From Patescibacteria group bacterium (GTDB taxonomy: Bacteria; Patescibacteriota; Minisyncoccia; UBA6257; GWB1-50-10): a stretch of 59,785 nucleotides of DNA. The stretch spans positions 71,157 to 130,941 of the forward strand of contig JBBTQX010000004.1 of the NCBI GenBank assembly GCA_038065455.1, written 5' to 3'. The notes beneath the pieces are model-generated. The model had not been told where the DNA came from. It saw only the letters and a program-made list of their open reading frames with translations, and did no database searches. Position numbers and translations under genes: made by a program. Below are positions 9,265-39,546 of this stretch, piece by piece; position 1 is the first letter of the stretch; the number at the start of each line of letters is the position of its first letter.

Positions 9265-9331
9265 CCAGGTAGTAGAAGTTCGGCTTCCGCCTTAGGCGGC
9301 GTTGCGAAGCGGCCGAACTTTCACTACCTGG
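9265..9331. repeat. short inverted-repeat hairpin sharing the CCAGGTAGTAGAA / TTCACTACCTGG clamp of the leader-element family (copy A)
   Basis: 20-bp arms CCAGGTAGTAGAAGTTCGGC / GCCGAACTTTCACTACCTGG carry the same A-C plus G-T irregularity as copies B and C. It lies 7 nt (9332-9338) beyond the ruvC stop codon (9339-9341). Confidence 0.75.
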
Positions 9332-27197: not shown

Positions 27198-28985
27198 ATG
27201 AAAACCAAATATTTTTTGAGTATCGGTGTTCTTAGTTTCGGTCTTATCGTCTCCGCGTTCTTCGCCATAAACGGAGCGTCCGCTCAAACACCGATTGCAC
27301 CGGCGGTTAATCCGGCGGCGAATATTCAATATCCGATTGCGGAGCTCGGCAATTGCGCGAGTGAATCCTCCTGCCGCACCTATTGCGACGATGTCGCAAA
27401 CAGCGCCGCGTGTATCTCGTTCGCCGAAAAGAATAATCTGATGTCCAAAGACGAGGTTCGGTTGGCGAAAAATTTCGAAAAATCGGGAAAGAAAGGCCCG
27501 GGCGGTTGCACCTCGAAAGATGGTTGCGAAACATATTGCAACGATTCGGCCAATATCAACGAGTGCGTCGCTTTCGCGGAACAAAATAATTTGATGTCCA
27601 AAGACCAACTTGCGGAAGCCAAGAAGGTGCAAGCGGCGATCGCAAGCGGTGTCAAACCGCCGGCTTGTGGCGGAAAACAGGCTTGCGATAAGTATTGCAG
27701 CGACTCGACACACGTTGAAGAATGTATGGCGTTCGCAAAAGCCGCCGGTTTTATGACACCGGAAGAGGCGCAAAATTCGGATAAGGTGATTGCGGCGATA
27801 AAGAAGGGCGTGAAGCCACCGGCTTGTAGGGGTAAGGAGTGCGATAAATATTGCAGCGACTCGGCGCATACCGAAGAATGTATCGCGTTTTCCGAAGCCG
27901 CCGGCATGATGACTTCGGAACAAGCCACCGTGGCGCGGAAGACGGGCGGCAAGGGTCCCGGCGGATGCGTGGGCAAGGAACAGTGCGATGCATTTTGCAA
28001 TGACTCCGCGAATCAGGAAACCTGTTTCAGTTTCGGTAGGGATAACGGACTGATTCCTCCGGAACAGCTTCAAAAAATGGAAGAGGGAAAGAAACAATTC
28101 ACCGGTTCACTGAACCAGGCGCCGGCTCAGGTATTGACCTGCATATCCGGCGTTGTGGGGGCAGATAGTTTGGAGAAGTTCAAGACCGGTACATTAATGC
28201 CGCCGCGGGACATAGGAGACAAGATTGGAGAATGTTTCCGCCAAGGGATGCCGCCCGGCGGTCCGGGAGAGGGAGGTAATATTCCGCCGGCCGGCCAGGG
28301 TCCCGGCGATGCAAAATCGTTCCAGCCCGGGCCGGGAAATATGAATCCCGGCGGGAAGATAATGCCCCAACAATCGGGTCCGGGCGGATGCAAAACTCCG
28401 GAGGAGTGTCAATCGTTCTGTACATCCAATCCGGATGTTTGTAAAAATTTCCAACCGAGCGGGGGACCCCAACAAGGCGAAGGTGATCAAAATCAAGATA
28501 ACAGGAGAGAAATGATGCCGGGAACTCAATCCGGACAAGGACAGTCGAATCAACAAAATCAGCCCAGACAACAGCCCAATCAACCAGTCCAAAGTGGCCA
28601 AGGTGGAAGCGTGGGTCCTTGCGGTACGGGTCCGGGCACCTGTTCGGGTATAGGCCCCGATGATATAAAATCCGGTCAACCGGGACAAAACATGATGCAG
28701 CCCGGAAATTATATTCAGGGAGGGCAGGGGCAAAATCAAAATCAGTCGGGTTCATTTATGCCAAATTCGGAGCAAATGCAGCAGTTTCAAAATCAAATGC
28801 AGTCCGGCACTCAACAAGGTGGAACGCCTCCTTCGGGCAATCAGCAATTTCAGCAGCCGCAGCAGCAATTCCAGTCGCCGCCTCCGGGCGGAGGAGGAAC
28901 ACCACCGCCACCGAGTGGAGGTACGCCACCGTCGCCAGGCGGAGGCTCGCTTATCCAATCAGTTCAATCCTTCTTCGGATTTTAG
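27198..28985 (+). CDS. secreted modular Cys-rich repeat protein with a Q/N/G/P-rich low-complexity tail
   Basis: 595 aa with a signal peptide (..NGASA/QT) and six modules of C-x5-6-C-x3-C-x7-9-C (for example CTSKDGCETYCNDSANINECVAFAEQNNLMSKD). The last roughly 180 aa are Q/N/G/P-rich. Confidence 0.8.
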   Translation: MKTKYFLSIGVLSFGLIVSAFFAINGASAQTPIAPAVNPAANIQYPIAELGNCASESSCRTYCDDVANSAACISFAEKNNLMSKDEVRLAKNFEKSGKKGPGGCTSKDGCETYCNDSANINECVAFAEQNNLMSKDQLAEAKKVQAAIASGVKPPACGGKQACDKYCSDSTHVEECMAFAKAAGFMTPEEAQNSDKVIAAIKKGVKPPACRGKECDKYCSDSAHTEECIAFSEAAGMMTSEQATVARKTGGKGPGGCVGKEQCDAFCNDSANQETCFSFGRDNGLIPPEQLQKMEEGKKQFTGSLNQAPAQVLTCISGVVGADSLEKFKTGTLMPPRDIGDKIGECFRQGMPPGGPGEGGNIPPAGQGPGDAKSFQPGPGNMNPGGKIMPQQSGPGGCKTPEECQSFCTSNPDVCKNFQPSGGPQQGEGDQNQDNRREMMPGTQSGQGQSNQQNQPRQQPNQPVQSGQGGSVGPCGTGPGTCSGIGPDDIKSGQPGQNMMQPGNYIQGGQGQNQNQSGSFMPNSEQMQQFQNQMQSGTQQGGTPPSGNQQFQQPQQQFQSPPPGGGGTPPPPSGGTPPSPGGGSLIQSVQSFFGF

Positions 28986-36481: not shown

Positions 36482-36516
36482 AAACCCAGCCAATCCATGG
36501 ATCGGCCGGGTTATTT
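36480..36516. terminator. bidirectional hairpin between the NUDIX gene and rplT
   Basis: Hairpin ACCCAGCCAATCC-atgg-ATCGGCCGGGT flanked by an A-run and a T-rich tail. Confidence 0.45.
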
Positions 36517-36855
36517 GACGGCTTCGACGATTTTCTTGAAGACCTCCGGGTGATTCTGGGCCAGGTCCGCGAGAATTTTCCTGTCCAATTTTATATCCTT
36601 CTTTTTCAGGGCATTTATGAATTGGCTGTACTTCATTCCGTGCTCCTTGGCCGCGGCGCCGAGCTGAACCTGCCAGAGCCGGCGATAATCGCGCTTCTTT
36701 TCTTTGCGGCCCTTGAACATCCGCGAGAGCCCGTGAAGCAAAGCTTCCTTGGCCGCCCGTTCTTTGGACTTGCGGCCCCAACGATAGCCCTTTGTGAGCT
36801 TCAATAACTTCTCCCTTTTTTTGTGGGCGACGGTGCCCCGTTTTACTCTTGGCAT
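36511..36855 (-). CDS. rplT: 50S ribosomal protein L20
   Basis: 114 aa, MPRVKRGTVAHKKREKLLKLTKGYRG-type sequence. Confidence 0.95.
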   Translation of the reverse strand: MPRVKRGTVAHKKREKLLKLTKGYRWGRKSKERAAKEALLHGLSRMFKGRKEKKRDYRRLWQVQLGAAAKEHGMKYSQFINALKKKDIKLDRKILADLAQNHPEVFKKIVEAVK

Positions 36856-36864
36856 GTTTTTGGA

Positions 36865-37038
36865 TTAAAAATATCTTTTTATCTTTTTTGCGGTAATAGT
36901 CAGTTGCCGCTCATTCTTTTTCCGTTTCATTTGGGAAGTGCTCTTGTTGGCGCGGGAGTGGCCGAGCGTGGTTGAGCGGCGCAGGATTTTGCCCGATTTT
37001 TTCACTTTGATTCTTTTGGATACGCTTTTTTGTGCCAT
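36865..37038 (-). CDS. rpmI: 50S ribosomal protein L35
   Basis: MAQKSVSKRIKVKKSGKILRR. The 10-aa N-terminal extension in the ORF track (to 37068) is a read-through of the repeat arm. Confidence 0.9.
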   Translation of the reverse strand: MAQKSVSKRIKVKKSGKILRRSTTLGHSRANKSTSQMKRKKNERQLTITAKKIKRYF

Positions 37039-37043
37039 ATTTA

Positions 37044-37187
37044 CCAGGTAGTGAAAATGCGATTGCAAATCGTGATTAAACCAACGATTTGTCCTTTAAT
37101 TCTAATGACCTTTTATATAATTTCATATTCTGTGTTAAGTGATAGTTCATAATTTAAATTTAACCTAATCGCATTTCTACTACCCGG
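37044..37187 (-). repeat. inverted-repeat leader element, copy C (fills the infC-rpmI intercistronic gap)
   Basis: On the coding strand, arms CCGGGTAGTAGAAATGCGATT ... AATCGCATTTTCACTACCTGG enclose a 102-nt AT-rich interior. It begins 1 nt after the infC stop and ends 5 nt before the rpmI ATG. Confidence 0.85.
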
Positions 37188-37691
37188 TTAATTTCTTCTG
37201 GCGATCTGGGCCACGAATCCCCGGCCGCCCTGTCTCGGGCTCATCGTTATCTCATGGGGAACGGAAATCATAGTAAGGAATTCCCGCATTTTCTGCAAGG
37301 CCCATTCCTTGTTTCCTTTTTCCCGGCCCCGGAGAAAGATGCCGATTTCCACCTTGTGACCCTCTTTTAAAAACTCGTCCGCCTGCTTCGCTCGGATTTG
37401 CAGATCGTTCAGCGCCGCCCGAGGACTGATGCGCACCTGCTTCAGTTCCTTCTGTTTCTGGGCCTGCTTCTGTTTTCTCTCCTCTTTGCCCTGGTAGTAG
37501 CGGAATTTGTCGAAGCTCATTATTCGCGCGACGGGCGGCTTGGCCATAGGGGCGATTTCAATGAGGTCGAGAGTCTTCTTTTGGGCCAGAGCGAGCGCGT
37601 CTTCTTTGCTCATCACGCCGAGGTTCTCGCCGGCTTCGTCTATTACCCGGAGTTCCTTGGCGATTATTTGATTGTTGATTCTGTTTTGGAT
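37188..37691 (-). CDS. infC: translation initiation factor IF-3 (probable non-AUG start)
   Basis: The ORF-track version (142 aa from GTG 37616) lacks the conserved N-terminus. The in-frame upstream sequence reads IQNRINNQIIAKELRVIDEAGENLGV, as IF-3 N-termini do. The candidate start is ATC at 37691, or ATA/ATC further in. The exact start is uncertain. Confidence 0.8.
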   Translation of the reverse strand: MQNRINNQIIAKELRVIDEAGENLGVMSKEDALALAQKKTLDLIEIAPMAKPPVARIMSFDKFRYYQGKEERKQKQAQKQKELKQVRISPRAALNDLQIRAKQADEFLKEGHKVEIGIFLRGREKGNKEWALQKMREFLTMISVPHEITMSPRQGGRGFVAQIARRN

Positions 37692-37730
37692 ATTCGAATG
37701 ATAGCAGGGAAGAAAGATAAATTCAATTAT

Positions 37731-37817
37731 AAAGAAACCAGGGTATGCCGAAAAAGTGTGCGCTCCGGGGCGCTAGCCCAAGTCTTACCCACTTTTCCAG
37801 CACACCCTGGTTTCTTT
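37731..37817 (-). promoter_or_regulatory. 87-nt three-tier hairpin in the infC upstream region
   Basis: A 14-bp outer stem AAAGAAACCAGGGT/ACCCTGGTTTCTTT encloses an inner stem GAAAAGTG/CACTTTTTC and a GC-rich apex. It could be an L20-type leader or a terminator. Confidence 0.4.
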
Positions 37818-37855
37818 ACATGTATTCATCTAGAGAGAAGATTATTAATTTTTTG

Positions 37856-37887
37856 AAAAAAAATAACCTCTCACATAGTAAGAGGTT
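37856..37887 (-). terminator. rho-independent terminator (minus strand)
   Basis: Hairpin AACCTCT-tactatgtg-AGAGGTT followed by a U8 run on the minus strand. Confidence 0.6.
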
Positions 37888-38099
37888 AAATATATAAACT
37901 TGTGATTGGAATTCTCCAATCTGATTTCGGGTTTTGGGCCCGATTGAACTGTTATTCGCAGTGGCAAATTACTGATATAAGTATAGCATTTTCCGCGGCG
38001 GGGAATAGACCGGGCTGGGGATAACTAAATATAGCCTTTCATTTGGTTAATATTACACCCATCCGCATGAAAATAGAATAAAAAAACCGCTCACTTTTG

Positions 38100-38534
38100 T
38101 TAAGTGAACAGTTTTTTATCTATTTCAAATTCAATGATTTCCGGACCATCCTCAATACAGGCCCGAATCCTCTCTTTTTCCGAATTATAAATACCTATTT
38201 CTTTTTCCATGGATTTTGATATTTTATCCAGGAATTTTTCAATGCCATCCGACCATTTCGGCAGATGATCGGTTGTTTCTTCCCACTTCGAAATTTCTTC
38301 GCACCTGCACTCTTTATCCGAGGCAAAACACATTGTTTTTATGTTTTCAGTGCCAGGTTCCAAAAAAACCATAAAGTAGACAAACTTCGATTTTTCATCT
38401 TCCTCGAACTCCTTCTCAATATCGAGAAAAATGGAAAAAAATAGAACCTTTCTACCTTCGGCAAGTTTCAATTGGGGTTTAAATCCCCCTACAATTTTTT
38501 CCACCAAATCTTTCACATCAAATCTCGCTTCCAT
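38100..38534 (-). CDS. hypothetical acidic protein
   Basis: 144 aa, AT-rich, with an AGGAGG SD sequence upstream. I recognised no domain. Confidence 0.55.
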   Translation of the reverse strand: MEARFDVKDLVEKIVGGFKPQLKLAEGRKVLFFSIFLDIEKEFEEDEKSKFVYFMVFLEPGTENIKTMCFASDKECRCEEISKWEETTDHLPKWSDGIEKFLDKISKSMEKEIGIYNSEKERIRACIEDGPEIIEFEIDKKLFT

Positions 38535-38778
38535 AAAATCCTCCTACTCATGAATTGGTTGATTTTAAAGCGTTTGGAAAATAAACTGCTTTTTAATTTA
38601 CCACTAAAGTCGAAAAAAGACAATTCTTCTCCCTCATCCCTCGACTATGCTCGGGATTCATCCGAAGCCACGGACTTTCGCTTTATCATCCCCCGGATGC
38701 GCGAAAGTTCCGTTCAATTCCCGTTCAACTACTAAAAACACAAATACCCGGCCTTTTATGGTTGGGTGTTTGTGTTTG

Positions 38779-39086
38779 TGGAGACGGCGGGAATTGAACC
38801 CGCGTACGGAAAGATTCGGCAAGCGTTTCTACAAGTTTAGTTCCGGTTGCCCGGAGCGGTTTTGCCTTCCTGTTTTAACGGAAGATACGGAAAGCGGATC
38901 TCTCCCGCGAACTCGCGATATGACACCGGAAGTTCCCTAGCGAGTGTCGGGGCCGATGCGGCATTACGCGAAAGCGAATGCCGGAGCTACCGTTTTATTG
39001 GCAGTTATCTTGGAAGCCGTTTTAGTGAGCGGCAGGCTCAGCTTGCTGCGTTTGCTTCATTCATCCCGTCGAAGCCGATCATCCCC
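38779..39086 (-). ncRNA. ssrA: tmRNA (SsrA)
   Basis: On the minus strand the 5' end reads GGGGATGATCGGCTTCGACGGG and the 3' end GCGGGTTCAATTCCCGCCGTCTCCA. The acceptor stem has G3-U. The tag reading frame at 39002-38964 gives ANKTVAPAFAFA*. It is adjacent to smpB. Confidence 0.85.
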
Positions 39087-39102: not shown

Positions 39103-39546
39103 CTACTCTCGGACGGCGCGCTGGATTTCTCTATCCACCTCCTTTTTCCTGATTGCATCGCGCTTATCTGCCTTTTTGAGGGGCTTGCCCAATCCTAACT
39201 TCAGTTTGATTAAGCCGCGTTTAGTGTAGACCTCAAGCGGAAGCAAGGTCAAGCCTTTCTCATGGAGCTTGCCCGTCAGATACTCTATCTCCTTTTTGGT
39301 AATCAGAAGCCGCCGGGAGCGGTTCGGCTCGTATTCCTTCGGAGTATTCTTGGGCTGGTATGGCGGAATGTGCGCATTCAAAAGCCACGCCTCATTGTGG
39401 CGGATGACGGCGTAACTGCCCGCAATCTGCATATGGCCGCTTTTGACCGCTTTCACCTCGAAGCCTTTCAATTCTATGCCGGCCTCGATCTTTTCCTGGA
39501 TATCGTAGTCAAAACTCGCGCGTTTGTTGAATGCCAAAGATGACAT
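39103..39546 (-). CDS. smpB: SsrA-binding protein SmpB
   Basis: 147 aa SmpB family sequence next to the tmRNA. Confidence 0.95.
   Translation of the reverse strand: MSSLAFNKRASFDYDIQEKIEAGIELKGFEVKAVKSGHMQIAGSYAVIRHNEAWLLNAHIPPYQPKNTPKEYEPNRSRRLLITKKEIEYLTGKLHEKGLTLLPLEVYTKRGLIKLKLGLGKPLKKADKRDAIRKKEVDREIQRAVRE

Follow-up and report, generated by a model that had tools for sequence, protein, structure and literature searches.

A MITE-like insertion between infC and rpmI of a Patescibacteria genome, and a family of very small elements whose full-length members carry a GIY-YIG nuclease

The element between infC and rpmI described here, copy C, very probably derives from a group of very small mobile elements of Patescibacteria, as a non-autonomous copy that has no ORF and the structure of a MITE. 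The spacer that it forms is a recent insertion of selfish DNA in a ribosomal operon, and not a regulatory RNA. In structure copy C is a MITE in every respect, having the size, the lack of coding sequence, the terminal inverted repeats, the target duplication, the dispersed copies and the empty sites of such elements. We infer that the mobility of the family is driven by the nuclease carried by its full-length members.

Copy C and its empty sites

The window, by which we mean the whole stretch of 59,785 nucleotides that was analysed, contains three copies of the element, A, B and C. They and the genes next to copy C are as follows.

9265..9331, plus strand: copy A, a 67-bp short form (arms and a GC hairpin), between ruvC and a PBP gene
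19729..19848, minus strand: copy B, a 120-bp element with arms as in C, in the divergent ruvA/rpsT spacer
36511..36855, minus strand: rplT (L20)
36865..37038, minus strand: rpmI (L35), whose true start is the ATG at 37038
37041..37043, minus strand: TAA, right copy of the duplicated target (element/TAAA), 2 nt before the rpmI ATG
37044..37187, minus strand: copy C, MITE-like and without an ORF, 144 bp long, with 31% G+C (window, 47%)
37044..37063, minus strand: 3' terminal inverted repeat of C, ATCGCATTTTCACTACCTGG (the 'GA' arm)
37066..37091, minus strand: subterminal hairpin CAAATCGT-loop-ACGATTTG, which adjoins the 3' arm of C and is kept in the C-type subfamily
37168..37187, minus strand: 5' terminal inverted repeat of C, CCGGGTAGTAGAAATGCGAT (the 'AG' arm)
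37188..37190, minus strand: TAA stop codon of infC, left copy of the duplicated target (TTAA/element)
37188..37679, minus strand: infC (IF3), with the conserved N-terminus INNQIIAKELRVIDE lying upstream of the first GTG/ATG

Along the minus strand the order is thus infC, copy C, the five bases TAAAT, the rpmI ATG (37038-37036) and rplT. An earlier note on this DNA had described positions 37044-37187 as occupying exactly the space from the infC stop to the rpmI start, with a 5' arm reading CCGGG where copy B has CCAGG and a 3' arm reading CCTGG, and had pointed out that the same arms stand ahead of rpsT; all of this is borne out. The arms of C pair throughout, except for A.C and G.T at positions 10-11, which are found family-wide, and G.T at position 3, which is specific to C. 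A 21-mer taken from the arm has 4 matches in the window at up to 3 mismatches, and 0.00 were expected from 100 shuffles. The arms of C are therefore not explained by chance.

Stop codons are present in all six frames of C. The sole ORF listed there is a spurious extension of L35, a 67-residue ORF (MQSHFHYLVN...) starting from a TTG at 37068, which is a read-through translation of the 3' arm of C. The earlier note was right to dismiss the ten residues MQSHFHYLVN as a translated arm, and in relatives the protein starts at the ATG (MQKSVS in L130, MHKSVS in L131 and L393). The annotation of L35 should not be extended through copy C, whose insertion shifts rpmI 147 bp downstream. On the other side of the element, the start codon of infC is non-canonical, because the conserved N-terminus of the protein precedes the first GTG/ATG.

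The two other copies in the window differ in their flanks. Copy A has a perfect TCAA/TCAA duplication, with its arms in a variant form. The flanks of copy B match at only 2 of 4 positions, a degenerate target duplication, and the element lies between the -10 box of rpsT (19854-19859) and the rpsT ATG (19718). The window derives from groundwater at the Hainich (well H41), where an exact-protein match recovers the same locus. No recovered contig of the window species lacks any of the three copies, so that there is no sign of mobility at the present time. Copy C is identical across these contigs, except in L126, where one interior base differs.

It could be proposed that copies B and C are a cis-regulatory RNA stem common to rpmI and rpsT, used for feedback by L20, S20 or another ribosomal protein. 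Each of the two copies immediately precedes a ribosomal-protein gene, with which it shares its orientation and would be co-transcribed. The stem is stable (z = -4.5), and the change at position 3 of C gives a G.U pair on the minus-strand (coding) RNA and an A.C mismatch on the plus strand, just as the earlier note had it. This reading nevertheless has to account for the genomes in which the spacer is empty.

The infC-rpmI-rplT loci of 80 related genomes were compared, and in many of them the infC-rpmI spacer is only 0-17 nt long. The closest relative among the fetched loci, L130, in which IF3, L35 and L20 together are 97% identical to those of the window, has a junction without the element, ...AAATAG ATC ATG CAAAAAAGC (TAG-ATC-ATG). 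The junction in L131 is likewise empty (TAA-AA-ATG). The empty site in L147, TAA-AT-ATG, is the window sequence minus C and minus one TAA. A second lineage is polymorphic, since L393 has a C-type element on the infC stop and L131, which is 95% identical to it, has none. An empty B site is seen in L226, where the rpsT promoter reads TTGACA-N17-TATAAT-ATGAAACCACTTAA-ATG. The earlier note had suggested that the spacers of related genomes should be aligned. The lack of the element in L130, in L131 and in many others is the outcome that the note itself had named as telling against its structural inference.

Further observations point in the same direction. In many phyla-level lineages the arms stand next to unrelated genes, hundreds in all, and target duplications are present. 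No Rfam model matched the element, and no L20 leader was found, in scans of the whole window at gathering scores and of positions 36800-38100 at E up to 10. The two strands fold equally well, the 144 nt of C alone giving -36.0 kcal/mol on the coding strand and -36.8 kcal/mol on the other, and the 166-nt stretch 37030-37195 giving -38.8 and -39.3 kcal/mol, respectively. The asymmetry of the G-U pair had been taken as a sign of selection on an RNA. It is, however, a single substitution, and transitions in a single arm elsewhere in the family (a small sample) produce a wobble on the gene-sense strand 3 times and an A.C mismatch there 9 times, so that wobble changes do not favour the sense strand. 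On this evidence an RNA feedback device is very improbable. Of the two possibilities that the earlier note had left side by side, a feedback module or something unrelated to L20, the first is not supported, given the relatives that are without the element and the lack of any Rfam match, and the second stands.

A palindrome with 29-nt arms upstream of infC (37715-37831) was also considered as a possible L20 leader. It was rejected, because L131 lacks it and it is confined to the window species and L130; it is lineage-specific and probably another repeat.

The dispersed family and its target sites

Copy C is one member of a large dispersed family. An 18-nt arm pattern matched more than 119 stretches in a species-representative genome collection and, among the matches listed, nearly every one that has a partner arm comes from a Patescibacteria MAG. 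The ATGCGA variant of the arm adds at least 111 further loci in metagenomes. Some genomes carry at least 10 copies of the arm-bounded element. All fetched loci pooled gave at least 249 distinct paired copies, which fall into size classes of 60-80, 110-150 and 290-340 bp. It is worth adding that assemblies break at elements of the family.

The borders were analysed in a first sample of 85 paired copies. Perfect 4-bp direct repeats are present in 53 of them, and a further 23 match at three of the four positions. The sequence CATA/TATG makes up 37 of the 53 perfect duplications. In 43 copies an ATG directly precedes the element and a long host ORF runs from an ATG directly after it. The orientation of the TATG type is biased, with the host gene leaving the 'AG' arm in 48 copies and the other arm in 11, and the GC hairpin is usually distal to the host gene.

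Two ideas about these insertions were tried and rejected. The first was an outward promoter as the reason for the orientation bias; matches to sigma-70-type and extended -10 promoters do not exceed those in shuffled interiors, on either strand. The second was a read-through fusion of the host start codon to the downstream gene; the element lengths have no frame preference (17, 16 and 10 copies), and the uORF MPGSENST... terminates within the element in 41 of the 43 copies.

The arms of the family begin CCWGG-TAGT and by family statistics are exactly 20 nt long, the pairing ending abruptly past position 20 across the 249 or more copies. At 18 arm positions the pairs are Watson-Crick in at least 94% of copies, and at six of these several pair types occur. 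At position 3, for example, 180 copies have A-T, 33 have G-C and 22 have C-G, and at position 16 there are 171 with T-A and 70 with G-C. The central mismatch is nearly constant, with A.C at position 10 in 242 and G.T at position 11 in 240 of the 249 listed copies. The co-variation does not single out RNA, because it is equally expected for the ends of a transposon or for a DNA hairpin.

Copies that have the arms and the interior of copy C form what we call the C-type subfamily, with copies at at least 10 other loci that are 64-83% identical to C over the full length. At 8 independent and unrelated gene junctions, members of this subfamily are arranged in the sense orientation as TTAA/element/TAA(A). 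The left TAA is the stop codon of the upstream gene, and the ATG of the next gene lies 0-10 nt past the right TAA. Copy C therefore fills the gap between stop and start exactly because the C-type subfamily integrates there. Position 3 in the C-type paralogues is A-T in 8 and G-C in 4-5, and the mixed G.T is found only in the window copy, which makes copy C a one-step intermediate between two symmetric states.

The hairpin of C might have been exapted by the operon, through coupling of infC to rpmI or through processing or stability by way of RNase III, an idea that is compatible with C being a MITE-like derivative. In C the infC stop codon adjoins the 5' arm, and 5 nt separate the 3' arm from the start codon of rpmI, so that a folded RNA would juxtapose the two codons. 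C-type copies occur at many such tight stop/start junctions in one orientation, the insertion between infC and rpmI is also found in the second lineage (L393), and C is fixed in its species with the single L126 difference noted above. Nevertheless the closest relative, L130, does without the element, target specificity alone accounts for the fixed orientation and site, and the conserved mismatch at positions 10-11 indicates that perfect pairing is not what is selected. We regard exaptation as unlikely.

The GIY-YIG nuclease and a proposed mechanism

The full-length members of the family are about 300-330 bp long. Two of them, L056 (327 bp) and L072 (314 bp), are bordered by perfect TATG/CATA duplications and have a single ORF between the arms, and the two ORFs match the Pfam GIY-YIG domain (PF01541) with E = 1e-15 and 5e-17, respectively. 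The best solved relative of the ORF is the UPF0213/Slx1-like protein BH0048 (PDB 1ZG2, E = 8e-4). A genome search with the nuclease protein gave at least 80 loci, and recognisable arms bound 48 of 80 homologue loci. There are at least 42 distinct intact ORFs of 86-105 residues with the catalytic motifs conserved. Their common pattern is Y.Y..S..Y.G.T..L..R...HN..STK..PW..E..DA.RRE.YLKT.QG.R..KR.LKEY.Y, and the columns conserved in at least 90% of the nuclease sequences are Y.Y..Y.G..R...HN..E. The ORF thus has the motifs and the conserved Arg and Glu by which the GIY-YIG superfamily is recognised. At E <= 1e-10 the nuclease forms a large family of at least 951 clusters, whose annotations read only 'GIY-YIG nuclease family protein', 'putative endonuclease' or 'excinuclease ABC subunit C'.

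In all 42 listed full-length elements, of 297-345 bp, the nuclease is the one ORF that fills the space between the arms. It begins 25-32 nt inside one end of the element, and terminates with a stop codon that touches or overlaps the arm at the other end. The nuclease ORF and the host gene run in the same direction, and the host ATG lies 20 nt past the nuclease stop in 14 of 23 cases. The polarity of the central mismatch relative to the ORF can be either. Another idea considered was that the nuclease ORF takes over the host ATG in frame; this is so in only 12 of 26 copies and is not decisive.

The arms co-vary between coding elements, as in the pairs CCAGTT../..AACTGG, CCAGGAAG../..CTTCCTGG and CCCCGTAG../..CTACGGGG. 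Distant GIY-YIG clades, some of them in Bacteroidetes, have different flanking repeats that are again inverted, and at least one of these clades likewise has a central mismatch and a TATG duplication. That each clade has inverted arms of its own indicates co-evolution of the protein with the ends.

Coding and non-coding members, and thereby the size classes, are linked by two cases. In L438 a 131-bp copy stands in tandem with a 317-bp full-length copy, the first ~40 and last ~48 nt being common to both. In L452 a 313-bp coding element (TTAA/.../TAAA) occupies the junction that in L405 and L440 holds a 140-bp C-type MITE. Since the full-length members carry the nuclease and a 131-bp derivative stands beside its parent, copies A, B and C are taken to be MITE-like, ORF-less derivatives. 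Most of the 130-bp copies are not simple deletion derivatives, because their interiors cannot be aligned to the ORF.

A different explanation is that these are ordinary MITEs moved by a conventional transposase, for example of the DDE type, encoded elsewhere, and that the GIY-YIG gene is a passenger which has been captured repeatedly. DDE transposition is classically recognised by terminal inverted repeats and a 4-bp duplication, both of which the family has. Moreover no GIY-YIG ORF is encoded within the 59.8-kb window, and to our knowledge no known transposase belongs to the GIY-YIG class. On the other hand, in about 1.4 Mb of fetched loci there is no transposase ORF beside solo arms or between distant arm pairs: the ORFs that adjoin solo arms are ordinary host genes, and arm pairs 400-4000 bp apart enclose no transposase. 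The nuclease is the sole ORF of every listed full-length element, divergent GIY-YIG clades have inverted arms of their own, and within each subfamily the duplicated sequence is near-constant (TATG or TAA) with the orientation fixed. Taken together, these observations make a conventional transposase an improbable source of the mobility.

On the basis of these observations, we hypothesise that the arms, perhaps folded into a hairpin or cruciform, are what the GIY-YIG protein recognises, in the manner of Slx1-type nucleases, and that the staggered cuts of this protein would mobilise both the full-length and the ORF-less copies. Eukaryotic Slx1 is a structure-specific nuclease that acts on stem-loops and junctions. 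A folded form of the arms is suggested as the substrate by the invariant A.C/G.T in a stem that otherwise co-varies, a feature reminiscent of integron attC sites, in which extrahelical bases are conserved. Copy C itself would be passive DNA, for which the nuclease is supplied in trans. The near-constant duplicated sequence in each subfamily could result from strict target recognition, or from joining via matching short overhangs.

There are two difficulties with this mechanism. Strand transfer is not obvious for a hydrolytic nuclease, and the GIY-YIG enzymes characterised so far usually leave 2-nt 3' overhangs, as against the stagger of 3-4 nt that is implied here.

Copy C would be transcribed along with infC, rpmI and rplT, and its arms should then be able to pair in the mRNA. 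Such pairing would be a by-product of the inverted repeats and not a sensor of a ribosomal protein. The predicted RNA fold puts the infC stop and the rpmI start within a few nt of each other, and this may be what makes the insertion tolerable.

More generally, the arms could mark a new class of mobile element, a cassette of 300-330 bp made up solely of two 20-bp inverted repeats with an obligatory central A.C/G.T mismatch and a Slx1-type nuclease of 86-105 residues, which is self-mobilising and specific for start (TATG) or stop (TTAAA) codons. The same elements would also move ORF-less derivatives, insert in a specific orientation and be expressed from host promoters, and their hairpin may restore the proximity of stop and start. 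Taken jointly, this set of proposals seems to us about evenly poised between right and wrong.

The genomes of Patescibacteria are tiny and tightly packed, and are thought to be poor in transposons. The family is nonetheless widespread in them, with insertions placed exactly at start and stop codons. Its coding members hold nothing but a minimal GIY-YIG nuclease, from a group regarded as housekeeping. If the nuclease does drive mobility, cut-and-paste or copy-in elements would gain a new class of enzyme, with a minimal model of ~310 bp. The element would then rank as the smallest known autonomous DNA transposon, and as the first with a GIY-YIG enzyme.

We found no description of this element in the literature on MITEs, GIY-YIG nucleases, UPF0213 or Patescibacteria. 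A survey of GIY-YIG proteins from 2006 presented the prokaryotic Slx1-like proteins as housekeeping repair proteins of mostly vertical descent; it described no flanking inverted repeats or mobility for them, and left open whether other GIY-YIG members are molecular parasites (PMC1564403). A study of Hainich groundwater listed GIY-YIG proteins among the genes donated horizontally by Patescibacteria, with no mention of repeats (PMC12455944). A mobile family of the kind proposed here would explain why GIY-YIG proteins are found among the horizontally transferred genes of groundwater Patescibacteria (PMC12455944).

Comparison with known systems

The L20-responsive leaders (Rfam L20_leader and the rpmI operator of E. 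coli) have only their location in the operon in common with copy C. Copy C differs from them in having no covariance-model match, in being missing from orthologous spacers, and in having relatives beside unrelated genes.

As in the REPIN-RAYT system, a small nuclease-type gene is found between cognate inverted repeats, and gene-less hairpin doublets are dispersed elsewhere. The present family could accordingly be viewed as REP-type repeats spread by a RAYT (HUH tyrosine) transposase, being made of hairpin-forming doublets of inverted repeats in intergenic DNA with a GTAG tetranucleotide near the end of the arm, as in the GTAG-tagged REPs described in PMC3733652. The single arms are not palindromic, however, and there are clear target duplications, which REPINs are without. 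The gene enclosed by the arms encodes a GIY-YIG protein and not a RAYT of the HUH-Y1 type, and the coding element is itself dispersed in many copies. A RAYT-driven origin is accordingly hardly credible. Targeting at the level of codons and the obligatory mismatch in the middle of the arms also set the present family apart, both from REPIN-RAYT and from the homing endonuclease genes.

The GIY-YIG homing endonuclease genes, such as T4 Seg and the relatives of I-TevI, are likewise the sole gene of a selfish insertion and are transcribed from the host. They differ in lacking terminal inverted repeats and a duplication, in being inserted only in the cognate allele, and in encoding extra DNA-binding domains. 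The protein of the present family is a minimal domain of 86-105 residues, and its copies are at many unrelated loci.

In domain and size the protein matches the Slx1-like/UPF0213 proteins, of which BH0048 is the solved example cited above, with the sequence similarity at E = 8e-4. By analogy, the action of eukaryotic Slx1 on stem-loops and junctions would fit a hairpin substrate.

In structure the family resembles the Correia/NEMIS elements of Neisseria and the RUP and ERIC MITEs. These too are non-coding, multi-copy elements of 60-150 bp with terminal inverted repeats and a short duplication. They are intergenic or intercistronic, form a long hairpin in the host mRNA, and are present or absent between close relatives. 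They are not known to have sequence similarity to the present family. The partner that shares its ends with the present elements carries a GIY-YIG nuclease, unlike those MITEs, for which it is a DDE transposase. The present family also differs from them in being placed on start (TATG) or stop (TTAAA) codons in a fixed orientation, with 20-bp arms and an invariant A.C/G.T.

Elements at the ends and starts of host genes

Short-form elements, the 60-80 bp size class of the family, occur on a host C-terminus in nine loci (L319, L321, L324, L331, L332, L336, L339, L340 and L344). They are 65-75 bp long, with arms CAGGGTAGT.../...ACTACCCTG and a target duplication of TGGA, and are inserted into the final codons of an orthologous gene ending in ...NWTG*. 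With its first bases the element rebuilds the codons ACA GGG TAG, and the C-terminus and stop of the host protein are therefore kept. A GIY-YIG gene without flanking arms lies about 20 nt downstream of the element.

Solo or 5'-truncated elements were found at three further loci.

L050, 5050-5068: solo or 5'-truncated element
L053, 3870-3888: solo or 5'-truncated element
L097, 3772-3790: solo or 5'-truncated element

In each case the gene-proximal arm alone is kept (GTCGAATTTCTACTACCTGG, then TATG), immediately 5' of the host start codon. In L050 a glyA-like gene lies upstream, and the retained arm also supplies its TAG stop.

Leaders and start codons in the window organism

Copy B, the 120-bp element upstream of rpsT, lies in the spacer between the divergent genes ruvA and rpsT.

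19854-19880 and 19930-19945: rpsT promoter / ruvA TATAAT region

Before the insertion of copy B, the distance from the rpsT promoter (TTGACA-N-TATAAT) to the ATG was only about 14 nt, and in ruvA the TATAAT overlaps the start or sits just upstream of it. These positions suggest that leaders in this organism are very short and lack obvious Shine-Dalgarno sequences.

The conserved N-terminus of IF3 (INNQIIAKELRVIDEAGENLG; 37617-37679, minus strand) sits 5' of the first GTG or ATG. The infC start codon is therefore non-canonical, probably one of the AUU/AUC class. Depending on the contig, gene callers predict a product of 141 aa or 213 aa.

The infC-rpmI neighbourhood

37715-37831, minus strand: second long palindrome, between a terminator-like hairpin (37864-37888) and infC

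The arms of this palindrome are 29 nt long with 90% complementarity (TAAAGAAACCAGGGT...ACCCTGGTTTCTTTA). It is found in the window species, L121 and L130 (the closest relative at this locus); in L131 the region upstream of infC lacks it. The palindrome could belong to a further repeat family or be a leader specific to this lineage; the sole Rfam matches, to plant microRNAs, were judged spurious.

In three Logan assemblies of the same locus (L124, L125 and L127), the contig ends 20 nt into the 3' arm of copy C, the 144-bp element between infC and rpmI, so short-read assemblies of this organism break at the repeat.

Other features of the window

26715-26742 and 26885-26912: 28-nt direct repeat, 93% identical, copies 170 nt apart
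27198-28985, plus strand: 595-aa ORF with internal tandem repeats
38776-39086, minus strand: tmRNA gene (118 bits, tag ANKTVAPAFAFA)

The first copy of the direct repeat overlaps the 3' end of tRNA-Arg(CCG) (26667-26739), and the pair could be a remnant attachment-site duplication. The tandem repeats of the ORF, of about 153-156 nt, lie at 27378-27605 and 27679-27925 and are 75-77% identical; no Pfam match is recorded for it in the matching contig. The tmRNA gene is adjoined by smpB (39103-39546), which is the expected arrangement.
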